Position numbers and translations under genes: made by a program
Part shown: in pieces, positions 1 through 6,025 of the stretch
How the letters are laid out: each line of letters starts with the position of its first letter
How positions within the stretch are numbered: position 1 is the first letter of the stretch
IMG/VR virus record: IMGVR_UViG_3300020030_000133
Span: 1 to 6,025 of that record
DNA length: 6,025 nucleotides
Strand: one strand, 5' to 3'
From: a virus
Notes under the pieces: generated by a model
Databases searched by the model: none
What the model saw: the letters and a program-made list of their open reading frames with translations, nothing else
Told to the model about the DNA's origin: nothing

Positions 1-121
1 ACCAAAGCCAAGGTAGCAACATGAGCCAAAGCCAAGGCGGGGGACAGAGTACATCCACGAGCGTTGGCGGCACAAACGACAAGCAGATCATGGACTACCT
101 CAACAAATACTATCAATGGCA
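1..121. repeat. Left copy of an exact 121-nt terminal overlap (identical to 5905..6025), marking a circular genome of 5904 nt
   Basis: Read by eye: accaaagccaaggtagcaacatgagccaaagccaaggcggggg...aaatactatcaatggca occurs at both ends of the window at offset 5904. The VP2 frame is continuous across the junction. Confidence 0.95.
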
Positions 122-737
122 GGGCGGGCAAAACGCTTTCCAAAGCAAAACGAACCGCCAAAACATGTTAATGCAGATGGGCTATAATACGCTATCAGCA
201 ATTCAGCAAGGCATTTATAACCACATCGAGAACAACGCCGCAATGCAGTACAACAGCGCAGAAGCACTGGCAAACAGACAGTTTCAAGAGCGTATGAGCA
301 GTACAGCATACCAAAGAGCCGTTGAAGATATGCGAAAAGCAGGATTAAATCCTATTTTGGCATTCGCACAAGGCGGAGCAAGCACGCCGGGCGGAGCGGG
401 CGCTACAATCACAGGCGCAAGTATGGGAATGCCAACGTCAAGCGCACTGGGAGTATCCACATTAAACGGCAACGTACCGAACAGCTATTTCAGCAAAAGT
501 GAAAGTAAGTCACAGTGGTACCAGCTAGCCGAAGCCGTAGGCAGTCAGATGAGTACAGGCTATAGTAGTCCGGTACAGTTGACAGAAGATTTGCTCAAAA
601 CCTATAAGCAGATGGAAAAGACAGAAAAAACAGTACCAACTGCGAAACCGAAAAACAAAGAAAGCAGAGCAATGAAGCCGCAGGACAAAACAGGAGCATA
701 CGGAGAGAAGAGAAAGCCGGGTGATTATCTGAAATGA
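1..737 (+). CDS. VP2: DNA pilot / minor capsid protein VP2, 3' portion (5'-truncated by the window start; same gene as 5778..6025; full gene 864 nt, 287 aa on the circle)
   Basis: The frame is open from the window start (first full codon at 3) to TGA 735..737. The track ORF 21..737 begins at an internal Met. It contains [23 protein letters not shown], which I recognise as the conserved core of gokushovirus VP2 proteins, and a Gly/Ser/Gln-rich N-terminal region. It shares an ATGA stop/start overlap with VP4. Confidence 0.85.
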
Positions 738-1753
738 GTTGTTACAAGCCGTTAATAAGGCTGTACAACCCGAATGATAAAGAACAGAGCGGGCGGGTAT
801 ATTCACTCGCCCGCTTTTCTCAGCTAAGCGGGAAACAGCTAAAATATGAAGATTTGATGTATAATCCAAAAGTCATGTTAATTCCATGCGGACAATGTAT
901 TGGATGCAGAATCAGACAACGAGAAGATTGGACAACGAGAATAGAGCTAGAAGCGCGAGACTATCCGAAAGAAGAAGTTTGGTTTATAACACTAACTTAT
1001 GACGATGAACATGTACCGGGCATGATAGTAAAAACAGGTGAAATCATGCGCAAAGTACAGTACACATGGAAGCCGGGAGAGAAGCGCCCTAGCAGTGTTC
1101 AGATTTTGCTATATGAGGATATTCAAAAGTTCTTAAAACGTCTCAGAAAGGCTTACAGGGGCAAATTACGCTATTTTGTGGCTGGTGAGTATGGAGAGCA
1201 GACAGCAAGACCGCATTATCACATGATACTATACGGATGGAGACCAAAAGACCTAGAAAACCTGTACAAAATCCATCACAACGGATACTATACCAGTAAA
1301 TGGTTAGCAGACCTATGGGGAATGGGTCAAATACAGATAGCGCAAGCAGTTCCAGAAACCTACAGATATGTTGCAGGGTACGTTACAAAAAAAATGTACG
1401 AAATAGACGGCAAGAAAGCAAATGAATACTATGAACTAGGGCAAACAAAACCATTTGCATGCATGAGCTTAAAGCCAGGACTCGGAGATCACTACTATCA
1501 AGAGCACAAAGCAGAAATCTGGCGGCAAGGATACATTCAATGCACCAACGGAAAACAAGCGCAAATTCCAAGATACTACGAAAAACAGATGGAAGCAGAA
1601 AACCCACAAAGGCTGTGGAGAATCAAACAGAACCGACAGAAAAACGCAATGAAGCAGAAGAGACTACAGTTAGAAGGTCAGGACTATAAAACCGTCCTAG
1701 AGACCAAAGAGCGTGTCACCAAAAAACAAACGAAAAAACGTGGCATTTTGTAA
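734..1753 (+). CDS. VP4: Replication initiation protein VP4 (HUH-superfamily rolling-circle endonuclease, phiX174 protein A analogue)
   Basis: 339-aa ORF. N-terminal MSCYKPL and Cys cluster PCGQCIGCR. Motif 1 FITLTY, motif 2 PHYHMILYG (HUH), motif 3 [11 protein letters not shown] (catalytic Tyr pair). Basic K/R/Q-rich C-terminus. The start overlaps the VP2 stop (ATGA). Confidence 0.95.
786..818 (+). terminator. Intragenic GC-rich hairpin followed by TTTT, about 55 nt into VP4 (candidate attenuating terminator or cis-acting DNA element)
   Basis: agcgggcg (788..795) pairs perfectly with cgcccgct (808..815). The stem can extend by G796.T807 and G797-C806, leaving the loop tatattca. It is followed by tttt (815..818). 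Confidence 0.35.
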
Positions 1754-1766
1754 TTGGTGTCACCTA

Positions 1767-1808
1767 GCCCAGTACCTATCAAGTAAGGTACTGGGCATTT
1801 TATTATTT
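1767..1808 (+). terminator. Rho-independent terminator downstream of VP4
   Basis: Perfect 10-bp stem gcccagtacc (1767..1776) / ggtactgggc (1787..1796) with a 10-nt loop, followed directly by attttattattt. It begins 14 nt after the VP4 stop codon. Confidence 0.8.
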
Positions 1809-1809
1809 A

Positions 1810-1848
1810 GCACGCACGCACGCGCGTTAAATCGCACGTGCACGCGTG
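1810..1848. other. Two perfectly alternating purine/pyrimidine (CG/CA) tracts forming an imperfect hairpin
   Basis: gcacgcacgcacgcgcg (1810..1826, 17 nt) and cgcacgtgcacgcgtg (1833..1848, 16 nt) are separated by ttaaat. The inner 8 positions pair 7/8. The second tract contains overlapping palindromes CACGTG, GTGCAC and ACGCGT. Confidence 0.6.
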
Positions 1849-1935
1849 AGGTAAAGTGAGAGAACGTTCTACCCTATAATCCCTATTCGCTACGCTTCAA
1901 GGGATAACGCTTTGCCTTTATTATATAACTTGTTG

Positions 1936-1950
1936 TAGTAGTAGTAGTAG
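1936..1950. repeat. (TAG)5 trinucleotide microsatellite
   Basis: tagtagtagtagtag read directly, preceded by ttgttg. Confidence 0.95.
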
Positions 1951-1954
1951 AGGA

Positions 1955-2120
1955 TGTGGAAAAGTTGAAAACTACTTTTTCTTTACGTTGGTACGAAGAA
2001 AAAGTAGCAAAAAGAATGTTAAAAGATTTGTTGAAAACTTGTTGAATTGTTGAAACACTCTGTTGTGCTAAAGTTTAACAATGTTGAAATGTTGAAAACT
2101 ACGTTGAAAATGTTGAAAAC
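1955..2120 (+). repeat. Array of same-orientation (T)GTTGAA(A)(A) iterons
   Basis: Exact GTTGAA starts at 1964, 2030, 2041, 2049, 2083, 2091, 2103 and 2112. Degenerate copies: tgtggaaaa at 1955, tgttaaaag at 2017, tgttgtgc at 2061. The 12-mer gttgaaaactac occurs twice (1964, 2091). Spacings within the clusters are 8-12 nt. Confidence 0.85.
1972..2007. repeat. 12-bp perfect inverted repeat (hairpin) embedded in the iteron array
   Basis: ctactttttctt (1972..1983) is the exact reverse complement of aagaaaaagtag (1996..2007). An inner cgt/acg stem (1986..1988 / 1993..1995) closes a ttgg tetraloop. Confidence 0.8.
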
Positions 2121-2157
2121 CCAATAGAAGCAGTCCGGAATCGAACGGGAAAGTCAC

Positions 2158-2204
2158 GGCCGCGCTTCGCTGGAAGTTGCGCCGCGTAGCGCGCAACAGC
2201 GGCC
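2158..2204 (+). other. GC-rich nested stem-loop element
   Basis: Outer all-GC 6-bp stem ggccgc (2158..2163) / gcggcc (2199..2204) encloses a perfect 7-bp stem gttgcgc (2176..2182) / gcgcaac (2191..2197). Several GCGC blocks allow alternative folds. It lies between the AT-rich iteron array and the promoter. Confidence 0.5.
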
Positions 2205-2208
2205 ATCT

Positions 2209-2260
2209 AATGAAAAATTTCTGCAGAAGACTTGACAATTGTAAAGAGCTGTGATATAAT
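2209..2260 (+). promoter_or_regulatory. Full-consensus sigma70-type promoter with extended -10 and an UP-like A/T tract
   Basis: TTGACA (2232..2237), 17-nt spacer, TG-n (2252..2254), TATAAT (2255..2260). The A/T tract gaaaaattt (2212..2220) sits at about -56 to -48. An 8-bp palindrome acaattgt (2235..2242) overlaps the -35. The first SD and ATG follow within about 25 nt. Confidence 0.8.
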
Positions 2261-2285
2261 AGAGTCAGAAAGAGAGGTAAGCAAT

Positions 2286-2465
2286 ATGATGTACGAATAC
2301 ACTGAAAACAAAAAGGTAAAATGGTACAGATCACCCATTGACAACAGCATAAGAATGCCTTATACTTACAACAAGAAAACGAAATTTTGGGAAAACAGAA
2401 CATGCCAACTGACGAGACAAAGAATCCACCAGCTAGAAAAAGAAAACAAAATAATGTGGATGTGA
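2286..2465 (+). CDS. Hypothetical small basic, aromatic-rich protein (59 aa), first gene after the promoter
   Basis: ATG 2286 is preceded by gagaggt (2272..2278) at 7-nt spacing. The track's TTG start at 2232 coincides with the -35 hexamer and is therefore unlikely. The stop at 2463..2465 lies 12 nt before the next start. No motif recognised. Confidence 0.5.
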   Translation: MMYEYTENKKVKWYRSPIDNSIRMPYTYNKKTKFWENRTCQLTRQRIHQLEKENKIMWM

Positions 2466-2477
2466 CAGGAGGCCAAC

Positions 2478-2861
2478 ATGAAGCACATAAACTACATAAA
2501 AGCAAACTTCGGAAAAGTAAGCGAGCACTTCAAAGCAAAAGAGTTTCAGTGCGGAGACAAAACAGAAGGGCTGCTGGTAGCAACCGAACTAATTGAAATA
2601 CTGGAAAAAATCCGAAATCACTTCAACGCACCGGTCATTATCAACAGCGGATACCGTACACCAAGCTGGAACAGCAAAGTAAACGGAGCATCAAACAGCT
2701 ATCACTGCAAAGGGATGGCGGCAGATATCGTAGTAAAAGAACACAGCAGTAAAGAAGTCGCAAAGTACGCAGATGAAATCATGGAGCAAGGCGGCGTAAT
2801 CAGATACACAAACTTTACACACATTGACGTGCGCGAAGAAAAATACAGAAAGGGGGTGTAA
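2478..2861 (+). CDS. Peptidase M15-type zinc peptidoglycan hydrolase (D-Ala-D-Ala carboxypeptidase / L-Ala-D-Glu peptidase-like fold); candidate endolysin
   Basis: 127 aa. AGGAGG (2467..2472) lies 5 nt before the ATG. Motifs: EFQC, INSGYRTPSWNSKVNGASNSYHCKGMAAD (an SxHxxGxAxD zinc-ligand motif with His76 and Asp83) and FTHIDVR (His115, Asp117), arranged as in Peptidase_M15_3-type proteins. No signal peptide or transmembrane (TM) segment is visible. Confidence 0.88.
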   Translation: MKHINYIKANFGKVSEHFKAKEFQCGDKTEGLLVATELIEILEKIRNHFNAPVIINSGYRTPSWNSKVNGASNSYHCKGMAADIVVKEHSSKEVAKYADEIMEQGGVIRYTNFTHIDVREEKYRKGV

Positions 2862-2864
2862 CCC

Positions 2865-2969
2865 ATGGCATTGATTAAGGTCAAAGACCTGCGAGAAGCA
2901 ATCCAGCTAATCAAGACGGTTCTGGAAAAGCTCGACCAGATCTACCACATCCTGAAGGAAAAGGAGTAA
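2865..2969 (+). CDS. Hypothetical 34-aa amphipathic helical peptide
   Basis: ATG 2865 is preceded by aggggg (2851..2856). It encodes MALIKVKDLREAIQLIKTVLEKLDQIYHILKEKE. It starts 4 nt after the peptidase stop, and its own stop lies 3 nt before the next ATG. It is too short for the ORF track. Confidence 0.4.
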   Translation: MALIKVKDLREAIQLIKTVLEKLDQIYHILKEKE

Positions 2970-2972
2970 AAC

Positions 2973-3194
2973 ATGGTAAACAAAACATGGAATGTGCGAG
3001 ACCAGACCGAAGAAACACTCAGATTAGAGGCCGAAAGGCTATACAAGCAGATAGAAACCGGATACAAGATGGTAAAAAAAGTGTCCAAGCTAGAAGAAGC
3101 CGAAAGGATCATTGAACGAATCTGGGTTATGAAGAAATGGGCCAACGACATCGAGCTAGAACTGCTCAGAAGGGAGTACAACAATGAAGCATAG
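2973..3194 (+). CDS. Hypothetical 73-aa charged helical (coiled-coil-like) protein
   Basis: AAGGAG (2961..2966) lies 6 nt before ATG 2973. The sequence is E/K/R/L-rich and helix-prone. Its 3' end overlaps the next gene start by 11 nt. Confidence 0.6.
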   Translation: MVNKTWNVRDQTEETLRLEAERLYKQIETGYKMVKKVSKLEEAERIIERIWVMKKWANDIELELLRREYNNEA

Positions 3195-3303
3195 GCAGAG
3201 AATGCCGGTACACACTGACAAGCGCATGTTCAACGTAACGGCACGCAAAACAAAGAGTATCAACCTCAGCCAGAAACCCATGCGGGGCGGCATCAGAATG
3301 TAA
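3184..3303 (+). CDS. Small highly basic protein (39 aa), J-like / gokushovirus ORF8-like putative DNA-condensing packaging protein
   Basis: Translated by hand: MKHRQRMPVHTDKRMFNVTARKTKSINLSQKPMRGGIRM. agggag (3171..3176) lies 7 nt before the ATG. About 11 K/R plus 2 His against 1 acidic residue. The C-terminal MRGGIR resembles, from memory, the C-terminus of chlamydiaphage ORF8-type proteins. It is positioned ahead of the VP5/VP3/VP1 module. Confidence 0.65.
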   Translation: MKHRQRMPVHTDKRMFNVTARKTKSINLSQKPMRGGIRM

Positions 3304-3315
3304 AGGAGAAAAAAC

Positions 3316-3558
3316 ATGATTCACGGATACTATGGCATCTACGACAGCGTAGCAAAGAGCTACTGCTACATCGGCGAAAACAAGAGCAACGAGACGTTTG
3401 CACGGATGTGCAATATCATGGCAAAGGACGAGAAGACGTTCCTGGGCCAGTCGCCTGAAGACTACAAGGGCTACCACATCGCAAACTTCAACGATGAAAC
3501 CGGCACGTTTGAGAGCATCGAGCCGGATAAAGTCTGGGAGGGCAAGCCGCATGAATAA
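3316..3558 (+). CDS. VP5: VP5-like non-structural protein (gokushovirus ORF5 family, tentative)
   Basis: AAGGAG (3303..3308) lies 7 nt before the ATG. 80 aa. The pattern IYDSVAKSY...ARMC...PEDYKGYHIANFNDETGTF matches my recollection of the VP5 family pattern (hydrophobic-YD-x-KA ... G-x-FD-x-x-TG). It sits immediately upstream of VP3, overlapping it, as in gokushoviruses. Confidence 0.65.
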   Translation: MIHGYYGIYDSVAKSYCYIGENKSNETFARMCNIMAKDEKTFLGQSPEDYKGYHIANFNDETGTFESIEPDKVWEGKPHE

Positions 3559-3985
3559 ACGATACGAGGAAGGGCGAGAGCCCTTCTTTTCAAATCCGGG
3601 CGAGAAACTGCGCAAACAGTACGTATGGGGCAAGGACGAAAAAGGCGAAAAAAAGCTGATTGAGACAGAGCCAATCGACATTCAGGCCGAAATCGAAAGC
3701 TATGCAGACGAATGCGACATCAAAAACATCGTCCGAAAAGCAAGCTTTGACCCTGAGTTTGCCAAAAGTCTAGCAGACAGCGCAAAAACGGATGAAGTTG
3801 TTGATATCACGGAATGGCCAACCAACATTCACGAGTATCACGCCATGATGGCAACAGCGCAAGCCAAGGCAATCGAACTGCAGAAGATGCAGGAGGAAAA
3901 GAAAGCAATCGAACAGCAGGAGACGCAGGAGGAAAATAAGGCAATCGAAACAAAGAAACAGGAGGAAAGCAATGAACAGAAATAA
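3551..3985 (+). CDS. VP3: Internal scaffolding protein VP3 (144 aa)
   Basis: The start is chosen at ATG 3551 (ggagg 3537..3541, 9-nt spacing; ATGAATAA overlap with the VP5 stop) rather than the track start 3398. IQAEIESYADECDIKNIV and DITEWPTNIHEYHAMMATAQ resemble conserved VP3 blocks. The C-terminus is acidic, Q/E/K-rich and repetitive. It overlaps the VP1 start by 14 nt. Confidence 0.8.
   Translation: MNKRYEEGREPFFSNPGEKLRKQYVWGKDEKGEKKLIETEPIDIQAEIESYADECDIKNIVRKASFDPEFAKSLADSAKTDEVVDITEWPTNIHEYHAMMATAQAKAIELQKMQEEKKAIEQQETQEENKAIETKKQEESNEQK
3869..3976 (+). repeat. Roughly 36-nt imperfect tandem repeat (three full copies plus a partial one) within the VP3 3' end and the VP1 start
   Basis: gcaatcgaa at 3869, 3905 and 3941 (period 36), then gcaatgaa at 3969. 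gcaggaggaaaa at 3889 and 3925, then acaggaggaaag at 3958. Encodes KAIELQKMQEEK / KAIEQQETQEEN / KAIETKKQEES. Confidence 0.85.
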
Positions 3986-5720
3986 TGAGCGACACTTCAA
4001 CAGTGTACCGCAGACACATGTAAGTCGAACGCGTTTCAAACGAGACCAGAACATTCTCACGACCTTCGATGCAGGAAAGCTCATTCCGTTTTACGTAGAT
4101 GAAGTTCTTCCGGGCGATACATTCAACGTGAGTACAGCGGCAATCATCCGAATGACTACACCGAAATATCCCGTTTTCGATGATGCATACATCGACTTTT
4201 ATTACTTCTTCTGTCCAAACAGGATCTTATGGGACAACTTCAAGCGTTTCATGGGAGAAGCAGACGATAGACCTTGGATGCCAACAATAACTTATGCAGT
4301 GCCAAAAATCAAAATCGCATCAAACGCAGAAACAGAAGGGCACGATAACCTGAAAGGGCCAAAAGAACAGAGCATTCTGGATTACATGGGAGTGCCGACA
4401 AAAATCAACGAAAAAGCAGGAGCCCAAGAGACGCTCATAAACGCACTGCCAATTCGAGCATATGTAAGAATTTGGAACGAGTTTTTCAGAGACCAGAACG
4501 TAGGAAATCCGGCGGCAGATTTTAAAGACGAAACATTGATACAGTATACGGACTTGAACGATGATAATGACGAAGAAGGAATTCTGAGAGATGCAGTGAG
4601 TGGTGCACGTTGTCTTCCGGTAAGTCGCTTCCACGACTATTTCTCATCCTGTTTGCCGTACCCTCAGCGTGGGCCGGAAGTGACAATCGCACTAACGGGA
4701 AATGCACCGTTAACAGCCTACAGCGAATCAGGACTGATCAACAAAAAAATAGGAACAGGATATTTCAACAACGAATATAACAGCGGAGTCGTAAATCACA
4801 CAAGCATCACATTCGGAAAATCAGGAACGAAATTCAACGTAAACCAAAACAACAACGGGAACAATGCACCGTTAACAGAAGGACAGTACATCCAGACAAT
4901 GAGCCAAGACGATGCAAACTTCCTTAACGCATGGTTAGGAACAGACCTAAGCAATATCGAAGCCGCAACCATCAACCAGCTGCGAAATGCTTTTGCAGTT
5001 CAGCACTATTACGAAGCACTGGCACGTGGCGGCAGTCGATACCGCGAACAGGTACGAGCACTGTTTGGCGTAACAATCAGCGACAAAACCGTTCAGGTGC
5101 CTGAGTATCTGGGTGGCGGACGCTATCACGTAAATATTAACCAGATCGTACAGACCAGCGGACAGCAGACCGAAAACGACACGCCAATCGGCGAAACGGG
5201 CGCAATGTCAGTAACTCCTATCAACGAAAGTTCCTTCACAAAGAGCTTTGAGGAGCACGGCTTTGTTATCGGTGTCATGTGTGTACGTCACAACCATAGT
5301 TACCAACAGGGCTTGGAACGGTTCTGGAGCCGTAGTGACAGACTAGACTACTATTTCCCGCAGTTTGCAAATTTAGGCGAACAGCCTGTCAAGAAAAAAG
5401 AAATCATGTTAACCGCAACGGCAGAAGACGACGAAACCTTCGGATACCAGGAAGCTTGGGCCGACTATCGCATGAAGCCAAACAGAGTAAGTGGTAAAAT
5501 GCGGAGCAATGCGGAAGGGAGACTCGACTTCTGGCACTATGCAGACAACTACGACACAGTGCCGACACTCAGTCAAGAGTGGATGAACGAGGGCAAAACA
5601 GAAATTGCAAGGACACTGATTGAACAGAACGAACCGCAATTTTTCGGAGCGATTCGAGTAATGAACAATACGACAAGATGCATGCCTCTCTACAGCGTAC
5701 CGGGGCTCGAGAAACTCTAA
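3972..5720 (+). CDS. VP1: Major capsid protein VP1 (Microviridae F-protein family)
   Basis: 582 aa. ggagg (3961..3965) lies 6 nt before the ATG. Hallmark blocks: FDAGKLIPFYVDEVLPGDTF, FFCPNRILWDNFKRFMGE, INQLRNAFAVQHYYEALARGGSRYREQVRALFGV and GFVIGVMCVRH. Confidence 0.97.
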   Translation: MNRNNERHFNSVPQTHVSRTRFKRDQNILTTFDAGKLIPFYVDEVLPGDTFNVSTAAIIRMTTPKYPVFDDAYIDFYYFFCPNRILWDNFKRFMGEADDRPWMPTITYAVPKIKIASNAETEGHDNLKGPKEQSILDYMGVPTKINEKAGAQETLINALPIRAYVRIWNEFFRDQNVGNPAADFKDETLIQYTDLNDDNDEEGILRDAVSGARCLPVSRFHDYFSSCLPYPQRGPEVTIALTGNAPLTAYSESGLINKKIGTGYFNNEYNSGVVNHTSITFGKSGTKFNVNQNNNGNNAPLTEGQYIQTMSQDDANFLNAWLGTDLSNIEAATINQLRNAFAVQHYYEALARGGSRYREQVRALFGVTISDKTVQVPEYLGGGRYHVNINQIVQTSGQQTENDTPIGETGAMSVTPINESSFTKSFEEHGFVIGVMCVRHNHSYQQGLERFWSRSDRLDYYFPQFANLGEQPVKKKEIMLTATAEDDETFGYQEAWADYRMKPNRVSGKMRSNAEGRLDFWHYADNYDTVPTLSQEWMNEGKTEIARTLIEQNEPQFFGAIRVMNNTTRCMPLYSVPGLEKL

Positions 5721-5747
5721 AAATAGTGCAAAATGACGAAAGGAGGA

Positions 5748-5773
5748 AGCCCGGAGAAATCCGGGCTATTTTA
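5748..5773 (+). terminator. Hairpin with GAAA tetraloop and short T-run between VP1 and VP2 (candidate partial terminator and/or RBS-bridging structure)
   Basis: agcccgga (5748..5755), gaaa, tccgggct (5760..5767): a perfect 8-bp stem followed by atttta. It starts 28 nt after the VP1 stop and ends 10 nt before the VP2 ATG. Confidence 0.55.
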
Positions 5774-5777
5774 GAAA

Positions 5778-6025
5778 ATGGCAGGATTAGGAGCAATGCT
5801 ATCAAGTGCTGGCACGTGGCTCGCAAGTCATCCAGAAATCGTAACGACAGGAATGTCACTGATAGGAAATGGCCTATCAAGCATGTTTGGACAGCATAGC
5901 CAGAACCAAAGCCAAGGTAGCAACATGAGCCAAAGCCAAGGCGGGGGACAGAGTACATCCACGAGCGTTGGCGGCACAAACGACAAGCAGATCATGGACT
6001 ACCTCAACAAATACTATCAATGGCA
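5778..6025 (+). CDS. VP2: DNA pilot / minor capsid protein VP2, 5' portion (runs off the window end; continues at position 122 of the first copy)
   Basis: ATG 5778 is the first start after the in-frame TAG at 5772..5774. Hand translation [61 protein letters not shown]... joins in frame to the 21..737 ORF through the terminal overlap. Confidence 0.85.
   Translation, partial: MAGLGAMLSSAGTWLASHPEIVTTGMSLIGNGLSSMFGQHSQNQSQGSNMSQSQGGGQSTSTSVGGTNDKQIMDYLNKYYQW
5905..6025. repeat. Right copy of the exact 121-nt terminal overlap (identical to 1..121)
   Basis: Same as for 1..121. Confidence 0.95.

Follow-up and report, generated by a model that had tools for sequence, protein, structure and literature searches.

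We analyzed a 6,025-nt stretch of viral DNA (the window; positions 1 to 6,025 of IMG/VR record IMGVR_UViG_3300020030_000133), a gokushovirus genome in which an array of GTTGAA repeats lies downstream of the gene for VP4. These repeats form part of a larger unit which, judged by its sequence, is a self-contained copy (~1917–2120) of the basal unwinding system (BUS) of bacterial replication origins. From ~1917 onward, the functional unit comprises an AT-only tract, TAACTTGTTG, (TAG)5, a spacer and two tandem boxes, followed by seven further co-oriented boxes up to ~2120 (Table 1). We propose that the repeats are DnaA boxes in the dialect of the host, and that DnaA-driven opening of the replicative form (RF) at this module starts or licenses phage replication, a reading to which we give a probability of about 0.65. 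By definition an oriC is chromosomal, and it is typically flanked by dnaA and dnaN. The present element is located between VP4 and a small open reading frame (ORF) of a 5904-nt microvirus genome and is therefore a phage-borne BUS-type module, not an oriC.

On the + strand, GTTGAA occurs eight times in 157 nt (starts 1964, 2030, 2041, 2049, 2083, 2091, 2103 and 2112) and otherwise only at 321, a count that confirms the clustering reported in the initial annotation. Both strands together hold 16 copies versus 3.96 expected, and none of 200 shuffles reached 16 or more. Among 5000 first-order Markov sequences with the composition of the genome, the largest same-strand cluster in 160 nt was 3, versus the 8 seen. 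When the composition of the non-coding region alone was used, the random maximum was 4 in 532 nt, again versus 8. Hence the enrichment holds against both shuffled and random sequences. Start-to-start spacing is 11 and 8 nt in the first cluster and 8, 12 and 9 nt in the second, which agrees with the 8–12 nt noted earlier; the degenerate copies, of which at least three had been noted, lie at 2017–2025, 2061–2069 and 2072–2080. The array was also correctly placed between a terminator-like hairpin (1767–1796) and a promoter (2232–2260), within the gene-free stretch 1754–2285. Its extent was not: while the repeats are real, the span of 1955–2120 first assigned to them is too narrow, as an equivalent box occupies 1955–1963 and the unit begins at ~1917. 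Aligned in register, the copies read (T)GTTGAAA(A/C/T), and the true repeat unit is the 9-mer TGT(T/G)GAAAA (reverse complement, TTTTC(A/C)ACA). Because TGTGGAAAA and TGTTGAAAA interchange at the same array positions in relatives, they represent two forms of one site. Intrinsic bending by A-tracts, which had also been suggested, is dispensable for explaining the array.

The elements upstream of the array were compared with the criteria and tables of Pelliciari et al. 2021 (PMC8287927; supplement), whose entries are written 3'->5' on the trio strand. The box nearest the trios, TGTGGAAAA, has no mismatch to the DnaA-box consensus of the literature, TTWTNCACA, and one to TTATCCACA, where a BUS box may have up to two. 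Adjoining it in an 8-mer-plus-9-mer layout is AGTTGAAAA, well placed as a second box, for which up to four mismatches and a gap of up to 3 bp are allowed. Variation of this second box in relatives falls at the W position of the DnaA box. A BUS has at least three NAN trios, of which 3'-GAT-5' is the preferred form, placed on the 5' side of the strand that shows the boxes as TGTGGATAA, and here (TAG)5 takes that place. The spacer is usually ~4 nt, with up to 16 nt from the best box, and in the window it is 4 nt. The strict combination of (TAG)3, 0–16 nt and TGTGNAWAA never arose in 5000 random genomes.

Read 3'->5', positions 1936–1971 of the window are AAAAGTTGA / AAAGGTGT / AGGA / GATGATGATGATGAT. 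The published entries, given as distal box, proximal box, spacer and trios, are AATAGGTGT / TTAGGTGT / CCGG / GATGATAATGAAGATGAT for B. subtilis (trios beginning GATGATAAT...), AATAGTTGT / TTAGGTGT / GAGG / GATGATGATAATGATGAA for C. acetobutylicum (trios beginning GATGATGAT...) and AATAATTGT / ATAGTTGT / TCGG / GATGATGAT... for C. botulinum (PMC8287927). The window and these entries agree in order, strand, 8-mer-plus-9-mer layout and 4-nt spacer. The G-to-T box variant of the phage repeats is likewise present in clostridial BUS entries, and it is frequent in the published tables (AATAGTTGT, 155 tokens; AAAAGTTGT, 41 tokens; PMC8287927). In the published origin entry for Ruminococcus albus, two such boxes stand in tandem, as TGTTGAAAA-ACC-TGTTGAAAA. 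In the BUS assay, strand separation requires a 5' tail bearing the trios, and the B. subtilis strand complementary to the trios reads CTACTATTACTTCTACTA. These two observations confirm the polarity of the module.

Table 1. Features of the BUS-type module and its surroundings (positions in the window)
Feature	Position	Strand	Sequence and remarks
AT-only tract, DNA-unwinding-element-like	1917..1928		On the far side of the trios; composition conserved in 134 modules
Nearly invariant 10-mer	1926..1935	+	TAACTTGTTG, directly 5' of the trios; 129–134 of 134 modules agree at every position
Five DnaA-trios	1936..1950	+	5'-TAG-3' x5 (= 3'-GAT-5'); strand and side match published BUS tables
Spacer	1951..1954		AGGA, 4 nt; length fixed, sequence free in relatives
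DnaA box nearest the trios	1955..1963	+	TGTGGAAAA; reverse complement TTTTCCACA, a perfect TTWTNCACA match
Second co-oriented BUS box	1963..1971	+	AGTTGAAAA, the first GTTGAA copy; relatives AGTTGA(A/T)AA
Palindrome/hairpin	1972..2007		CTACTTTTTCTT ... AAGAAAAAGTAG; 12-bp perfect inverted repeat (I3); fold -11.4 kcal/mol, z=-4.8
First distal box group	2017..2080	+	TGTTGAAAA 2029-2037, TGTTGAATT 2040-2048, TGTTGAAAC 2048-2056
Degenerate copies in first distal group	2017-2025; 2061-2069; 2072-2080	+	TGTTAAAAG; TGTTGTGCT; AGTTTAACA
Second distal box group	2082..2119	+	TGTTGAAAT 2082-2090, TGTTGAAAA 2090-2098, CGTTGAAAA 2102-2110, TGTTGAAAA 2111-2119
VP4, rolling-circle replication initiator	734..1753	+	Pfam REP_ORF2-G2P, E=6.7e-17; context, outside the module
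Hairpin (11 bp) then T-run, terminator-like	1767..1796	+	DNA fold -13.2 kcal/mol, z=-5.9
GC-rich block of alternating purines and pyrimidines	1811..1848		CGCACG-type; CACGCACGCACGCGCG ... CGCACGTGCACGCGTG; direct repeat D7, palindrome I2
GC-rich structured block	2134..2206	+	Fold -18.8 kcal/mol, z only -1.1
Extended sigma-70-type promoter, perfect 12/12	2232..2260	+	TTGACA-17-TGTGATATAAT (TATAAT); context only
ORF of 59 aa, poorly conserved	2286..2465	+	Homologue in 6/96 near-complete module-carrying genomes

To identify chromosomal counterparts, we scanned one genome per bacterial or archaeal species (GTDB) with the pattern TAGTAGNNNNNGTKGAAAAGTTGAWAA, for which chance would yield ~0.3 matches by our own estimate. 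The scan gave 36 bacterial loci, nearly all from Clostridia and most on long chromosomal contigs, with matches in Ruminococcus, Oscillospiraceae, Lachnospiraceae, Butyrivibrio and Christensenella. At 34 of the 36, mostly from Ruminococcus, Oscillospiraceae and Lachnospiraceae, dnaN and/or dnaA directly flank the match and are oriented as a Firmicutes origin would have them; both genes are there at 27 loci, and only one at 7, mostly because the locus ends nearby. Pfam confirmed the identity of DnaN or DnaA for seven flanking proteins, and no microvirus genes were found in the bacterial origin loci. The host dnaA–dnaN intergenic regions have (TAG)2-5, a 4-nt spacer (mostly GGGC) and T-GT(T/G)GAAA-AGTTGAAAA, and they go on with GTTGAA/GTGGAA arrays such as GTTGAAactGTTGAAagattGTGGAAaaaatGTTGAAagattGTTGAAaacttg. 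Position weight matrices for the phage distal boxes and the host oriC boxes, which lie outside the searched part, show a correlation of r=0.94 across positions that the search pattern did not constrain. This match, in arrays and in matrices, indicates that the phage repeats are DnaA boxes in the dialect of these Clostridia. From the box dialect, the phage hosts likely fall within Ruminococcus/Oscillospiraceae-type Clostridia.

These comparisons bear on what the initial annotation had made of the repeats. Its view of them as protein-binding sites of an origin-type element is favored by the BUS architecture and the host-origin match, at the level of putative sites, and among the binders it listed, a host factor, probably DnaA, now seems the best candidate. 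Their designation as iterons is not sustained, as the repeats correspond to 9-mer DnaA boxes in host dialect, joined to DnaA-trios. The dialect may also have a counterpart in DnaA itself. In the bacteria with the GTTGAA-richest origins (L092, L093, L097–L099, L109, L116 and L118), DnaA contains the segment GGRDHSTIVYA, where the proteins of E. coli, B. subtilis and Aquifex have (G)(R/K)DHTTV(L/I)HA. Three of the six base-contacting residues, according to the list quoted in PMC7561715, are thus changed in these clostridial proteins (T435S, H439Y and a displaced P423). Such changes may explain the TGTTGAAAA dialect or an altered box specificity.

The initial annotation had made its reading depend on conservation of the motif in relatives, and we found the ~205-nt module conserved in more than 130 distinct gut gokushovirus sequences. 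Relatives retrieved through VP4 have 5–11 GTTGAA copies within 700 nt after VP4 wherever the sequence suffices, with one clear exception, L047. The strict core of trios, spacer and two boxes was present at 67 of the 83 VP4-retrieved loci, the others being mostly truncated or variant cores. A motif scan of IMG/VR gave at least 119 contigs, almost all of microvirus size. In all, 136 distinct modules were collected, and 134 microvirus modules were used for column statistics. A and T make up nearly all of columns -28 to -20, none of which has a fixed base. The trio consensus is TAG, NMG, TAG, TAG, TAG; the three box-proximal units hardly vary, unlike the fourth. For the boxes the consensus is N-GT(G/T)GAAA-A-GTTGA(A/T)AA, with variation confined to G/T at position 4 and A/T at the W position, and the sequence beyond them is variable. 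Some box and trio columns were fixed by the search pattern, but the VP4-retrieved set, which is free of that bias, agrees. In 66 of 67 VP4-retrieved cores the spacer is 4 nt long, with many different sequences. Boxes are spaced by 8, 9, 11 or 12 nt, and the modal number is 10 per module. That trio identity, spacer length and AT composition are under selection argues for strand opening, not for binding only. Overall, the conservation is consistent with purifying selection on exactly the BUS elements. As for the exception, the fetched part of L047 (from 3520) contains no module; beyond the VP4 hairpin the DNA is foreign and AT-rich, and at 8781 nt the contig is oversized for a microvirus.

The 10-mer directly 5' of the trios shows a narrower distribution. 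While TAACTTGTTG is kept in lineages whose VP4 is 35–46% identical to that of the window, it was found upstream of the trios in none of 34 host oriCs, and it is also absent from L156, L207, L260 and L265, the more distant viral sequences described below. Purely as a conjecture, TAACTTGTTG could be a site of VP4 cleavage or recognition. Between the BUS boxes and the distal array, the palindrome at 1972–2007 occupies a spacer that is 48 nt long in most variants listed. Relatives have an imperfect palindrome in this place, centered on ACG-N4-6-CGT, with different arms and folding energies of 0 to -14 kcal/mol.

The module is also mobile with respect to its surroundings. In L024, L043, L046, L051 and L074, a segment of ~212 nt, from the AT tract to the last box, is inverted, while the hairpin, the CG-rich block and the downstream GC-rich block remain collinear. 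These variants set the module boundary at the end of the second distal box group; no long inverted repeats were seen by eye at the boundaries of the inverted segment. Within the VP4 clade of the window, 130 modules are direct and 4–5 inverted. GenBank gokushoviruses with VP4 35–46% and VP1 39–46% identical also carry the module, including TAACTTGTTG, either after VP4 or between VP2 and VP4, and often inverted; the module region carries no annotation in those records.

Related cores occur still further afield. Two distant microviruses with VP4 28–29% identical (L260, 62–260; L265, 2334–2540) have a BUS with (TAG)5-6 that is antisense to the genes, and their boxes are of the canonical GTGGATAA dialect. 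Such differences in box dialect between phage lineages are as expected if each is matched to the DnaA of its host. Two IMG/VR contigs lacking microvirus genes (L207, ~2300–2700; L156, ~2050–2313) have (TAG)4 with a spacer and GTTGAAAAGTTGAAAA, along with more GTTGAA boxes. The genes of L207, probably a large double-stranded DNA phage, include those for topoisomerase II-like subunits, dCMP deaminase, ThyX, an RNA ligase and a phosphoesterase. About 18 viral contigs of 8–275 kb (L245–L263) have (TAG)n, a 4–5-nt spacer and GTGGAT-type tandem boxes, many with more GTGGATAA boxes. The fetched stretches of these contigs, which are putative phages but could be mis-called host DNA, showed neither dnaA nor dnaN. 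By sequence pattern, BUS-like modules may be common in double-stranded DNA phages. One record, IMGVR_UViG_3300045988_007630 (10917 nt; L186/L053), has two microvirus gene sets, with VP4 86% and 36% identical, and is either a chimeric assembly or a co-integrate.

The occurrence of one module with divergent VP4 proteins, at different positions, in both orientations and on contigs without microvirus genes points to a box binder that is a host factor common to all module-carrying elements, likely DnaA. That the module is present in either orientation, and that strand-composition skew does not flip with the inverted segment, suggests action on the double-stranded RF. In the mechanism we envisage, host DnaA-ATP would bind the boxes on the RF and oligomerize unidirectionally onto the TAG (trio) strand, whereupon the adjacent AT-rich tract would melt. 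Through this opening, replication of the phage DNA would then be started or licensed by either of two routes, which may be combined. Host helicase might be loaded, leading to theta-type amplification of the RF, or the opening might expose single-stranded DNA to the HUH nuclease VP4. The trio complement, CTACTACTA..., contains paired TnnT motifs, the motifs recognized by DnaD in B. subtilis, which makes helicase loading and theta-type amplification plausible. Rolling-circle synthesis of progeny strands is presumably retained, as the VP4 motifs are kept. A more far-reaching form of the proposal would place replication of a rolling-circle single-stranded DNA phage under the control of host DnaA: a captured oriC module would be opened, either as the obligatory step that exposes the VP4 site (candidate, TAACTTGTTG) or to load host helicase, in which case the RF would replicate like an oriC minichromosome. 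This form we regard as possible but rather doubtful.

Several points weigh against the proposed origin function. DnaA binding, unwinding and the step after opening are deduced from sequence alone, and the hosts are assigned by motif dialect only. The AT tract, bounded by GC-rich DNA, is short (12 nt, plus TAACTTGTTG), compared with the ~30 nt upstream of the trios that are 80% AT in host origins. Phage modules have 7.5 boxes in one orientation versus 0.16 in the other, whereas the corresponding numbers for host origins are 6.5 versus 2.6; with its boxes so nearly one-sided, the phage module need not imply a full bidirectional origin. With the catalytic motifs of VP4 intact, and rolling-circle replication presumably with them, the need for a second initiation system is not obvious. 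Neither trios nor a BUS were found in Chp2, phiMH2K and SpV4, all classical gokushoviruses, so the module is not essential for the subfamily. Finally, a cluster of boxes on a multicopy RF would also titrate DnaA, and the data do not separate opening from sequestration.

This last point leads to an alternative that we consider unlikely, though not negligibly so, namely that the module serves as a DnaA sink or sensor. A multicopy RF with ~10 boxes on each copy would titrate DnaA, with the unwinding function unused; host initiation might be shut down or delayed, or the phage might respond to the level of DnaA, and such a role could possibly coexist with origin function. The ~10 co-oriented boxes per module, in the exact host dialect, suit a sink, as does the freedom of orientation and position, which is that of a pure binding site. 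There are also parallels in datA-type clusters and in the incompatibility caused by cloned oriC box regions: those of B. subtilis are named inc because plasmid-borne copies inhibit chromosome initiation. A sink, however, needs boxes only, yet the proximal trios, the length of the 4-nt spacer and the AT-only tract are conserved across the 134 modules while their neighbors drift. Lower still is the chance that the module does nothing but license rolling-circle replication, a special case of the DnaA-driven opening proposed above. Here, melting by DnaA would make TAACTTGTTG single-stranded for the VP4 cut, and the module would be the plus-strand origin. TAACTTGTTG is conserved as strictly as the trios, is microvirus-specific and lies where a DnaA filament would open the DNA. 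HUH nucleases require single-stranded substrates, and the AACTTG within TAACTTGTTG matches the core of the phiX174 gene A cleavage site, CAACTTG/ATA. But if the nick lay within the module, inversion would flip the packaged strand, and the A>T skew at four-fold sites, a measure that may reflect coding or translation bias, is equal in direct and inverted genomes; moreover, the strand-specific flanks keep their orientation. The unchanged skew weakens the case for a nick site within the module. A BUS without AACTTGTTG is present in L260, L265 and the contigs that lack microvirus genes, and AACTTGTTG arises trivially at box–box junctions, such as 2036–2044.

Explanations that do without DnaA fare worse. 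A phage protein, VP4 or the 59-aa protein (both named in the initial annotation), could bind the repeats as in iteron plasmids, or the repeats could be operators of the promoter at 2232–2260, in keeping with direct repeats in non-coding DNA upstream of the strongest promoter. We hold this to be very improbable. The 59-aa protein is an implausible binder given how few module-carrying genomes encode a homologue (Table 1). VP4 is very unlikely to bind the boxes, considering that phages with VP4 only 35–46% identical share the module, that contigs without VP4 or other microvirus genes carry a BUS, and that the same boxes fill the chromosomal dnaA–dnaN regions. A promoter-centered regulatory role, also proposed at the outset, is unlikely because the module moves and inverts among relatives, such that neither distance nor orientation to any promoter is conserved. 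We give hardly any credence to the idea that the repeats are Spo0A boxes, which would silence the phage in sporulating hosts as in phi29. TGTTGAA is one base off the 0A box TGTCGAA, and the likely hosts are Clostridia. Yet the 134 modules contain no TGTCGAA, versus 887 TGTTGAA and 157 TGTGGAA; position 4 is only T or G, a pattern consistent with DnaA boxes that leaves no CG core of the 0A type, and trios and spacing would be left unexplained. A hairpin-borne DnaA box of the ABC-primosome type on the packaged strand was also considered and is not supported, since the 700 nt after VP4 in the window contain no TTCAAC partner; the sole candidate pairing is an imperfect one of 9 nt (2046–2054 with 2074–2082). 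The occurrence of the module in both orientations likewise speaks against such a site.

The preferred reading, a host-type BUS opened by DnaA, can be set against known systems. With the bacterial BUS (B. subtilis incC, DnaA-boxes 6/7 plus trios; PMC8287927) the phage module shares tandem 8-mer and 9-mer boxes, a 4-nt spacer and at least three trios, which lie on the strand where the boxes read TGTGG..., with TnnT on the complement; the AT-rich tract beyond the trios may be a further common feature. Its geometry is that of Ruminococcus/Oscillospiraceae-type clostridial origins. Unlike the bacterial BUS, it resides in a 5.9-kb rolling-circle single-stranded DNA phage, away from dnaA and dnaN, and it has boxes of near-uniform orientation, a short AT tract and the invariant TAACTTGTTG, all within an invertible, relocatable cassette of ~205 nt.

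Other mobile elements, such as P1 oriR, pSC101, F and RK2, recruit host DnaA through origin boxes. These use their own Rep on 17–22-bp iterons together with a few auxiliary boxes, and we know of no DnaA-trio module described for any of them. In contrast, the whole phage array consists of DnaA boxes and trios, and no Rep iterons were seen in it. Where an iteron origin would have units of 17–22 bp that co-vary with its own initiator, the window has a 9-mer unit spaced by 8, 9, 11 or 12 nt, and relatives share it despite divergent VP4. The phiX174 origin, from the same family, consists of a 30-nt gene A site (CAACTTGATATTAATAAC...), with a primosome assembly site for the complementary strand. The two phages have in common an HUH initiator of the VP4/A type and, in the window, AACTTG beside the trios; on the + strand AACTTG occurs only at 1927 and 2036. 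A 30-nt origin of the phiX174 type (CAACTTG/ATATTAATAAC) is absent from the window, and neither CAACTTG nor ACTTGATA was found on the + strand. The phage element also differs from the phiX174 origin in being intergenic, repetitive and matched to a host chromosomal origin. The ABC primosome A site of R6K, reportedly described by Masai and Arai as a single-stranded DNA hairpin with a DnaA box in its stem, is similar in that DnaA serves a single-stranded replicon, and different in that its box must be hairpin-paired on single-stranded DNA. E. coli datA and the DnaA-box clusters of B. subtilis act by titration. Such clusters share dense boxes outside oriC but are not known to have conserved trios at a fixed 4-nt distance or an AT-only tract.

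BUS itself is already known in bacteria, the elements of B. subtilis reportedly from work by Richardson in 2016 and 2019, and its presence in Microviridae is apparently undescribed. In literature searches with most subscription journals outside their scope, we found neither DnaA boxes nor DnaA-trios in Microviridae, nor DnaA-trios in any phage, in line with the initial annotation, which knew of no iteron-based control region described in this family. Gokushovirus replication origins are essentially uncharacterized, and models for Microviridae all derive from phiX174, whose replication relies on a nuclease of its own together with Rep and PriA. To start or license replication of the RF through a complete DnaA unwinding module of host type would be a different route. 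If the more far-reaching form of the proposal is correct, persistent gut microviruses could be carried in the manner of a plasmid, coupled to the cell cycle of the host. Box dialect and BUS geometry together would also allow the hosts of uncultured gut microviruses to be assigned from sequence alone. In that wider view, phages would have BUS-type modules as a recurrent origin cassette, with a dialect that tracks the host and could predict hosts more widely. The modules on large viral contigs suggest that many phages have captured the opening core of oriC and that this has escaped notice.

Without its 121-nt terminal redundancy (window positions 1–121 are identical to 5905–6025), the record corresponds to a circular genome of 5904 nt, in which the VP2 gene spans the junction. 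By ORF list and Pfam, all genes are on the + strand and include VP2, VP4 (REP_ORF2-G2P), an M15 peptidase, VP5, a Chp2-type scaffold protein and VP1 (Phage_F). The nearest GenBank records are gokushoviruses from human, pig and monkey gut, with ~76–81% identity over parts of the genome. VP4 retains the HUH motif (HYH) and the YxxxY motif, as read by eye from the sequence. The stretch 1754–2285 contains no convincing ORF, and the 59-aa protein encoded beyond it matched no Pfam family.

Of the elements that flank the module, the hairpin at 1767–1796 is the most distinctive. In distant relatives its stem covaries but its loop, TATCAAGTA, is conserved; in MG945135 (L241; VP4 46% identical) an entirely different stem after VP4 carries the loop TATCAAGAAGA. 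It keeps its orientation in relatives with an inverted module. Conservation of the loop is not expected of a plain terminator. The opposite strand of the loop reads ACTTGATA, the core of the phiX174 gene A cleavage site. The hairpin could be a strand-specific replication or packaging signal. The GC-rich block at 1811–1848 is kept as a type in relatives, in most of which it abuts the AT tract of the module directly; it may adopt the Z form or hinder unwinding. In the window the two are separated by ~65 nt (1850–1914) that are missing in many close relatives (L003, L007), which suggests an insertion. Downstream, the GC-rich block at 2134–2206 varies as a cassette among relatives, with its orientation unchanged when the module is inverted; a role as a strand-specific signal is speculative. 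ARAGORN found no tRNA at 'ggaatcgaac' (2138–2147), and a tRNA or attachment site there was dismissed. The promoter at 2232–2260 varies in presence and position among relatives and is uncoupled from the module. A second promoter-like site (2338–2366; TTGACA-17-TATACT, 11/12) lies inside the poorly conserved 59-aa ORF.

An Rfam search of the window gave only a sub-threshold match to Termite-leu (784–871, inside VP4; 26.4 bits versus a gathering score of 51). It is due to a strong GC hairpin and T-run (GCGGGCGGG...CCCGCCCGC, ~787–815) at the start of VP4, and as an RNA family it is probably a chance match, though the hairpin is notable. Four-fold sites on the coding strand have 34–53% A and 9–14% T (AT skew +0.46 to +0.70; window, L003, L024, L034 and L239–L244), and the opposite strand is correspondingly T-rich at these sites.

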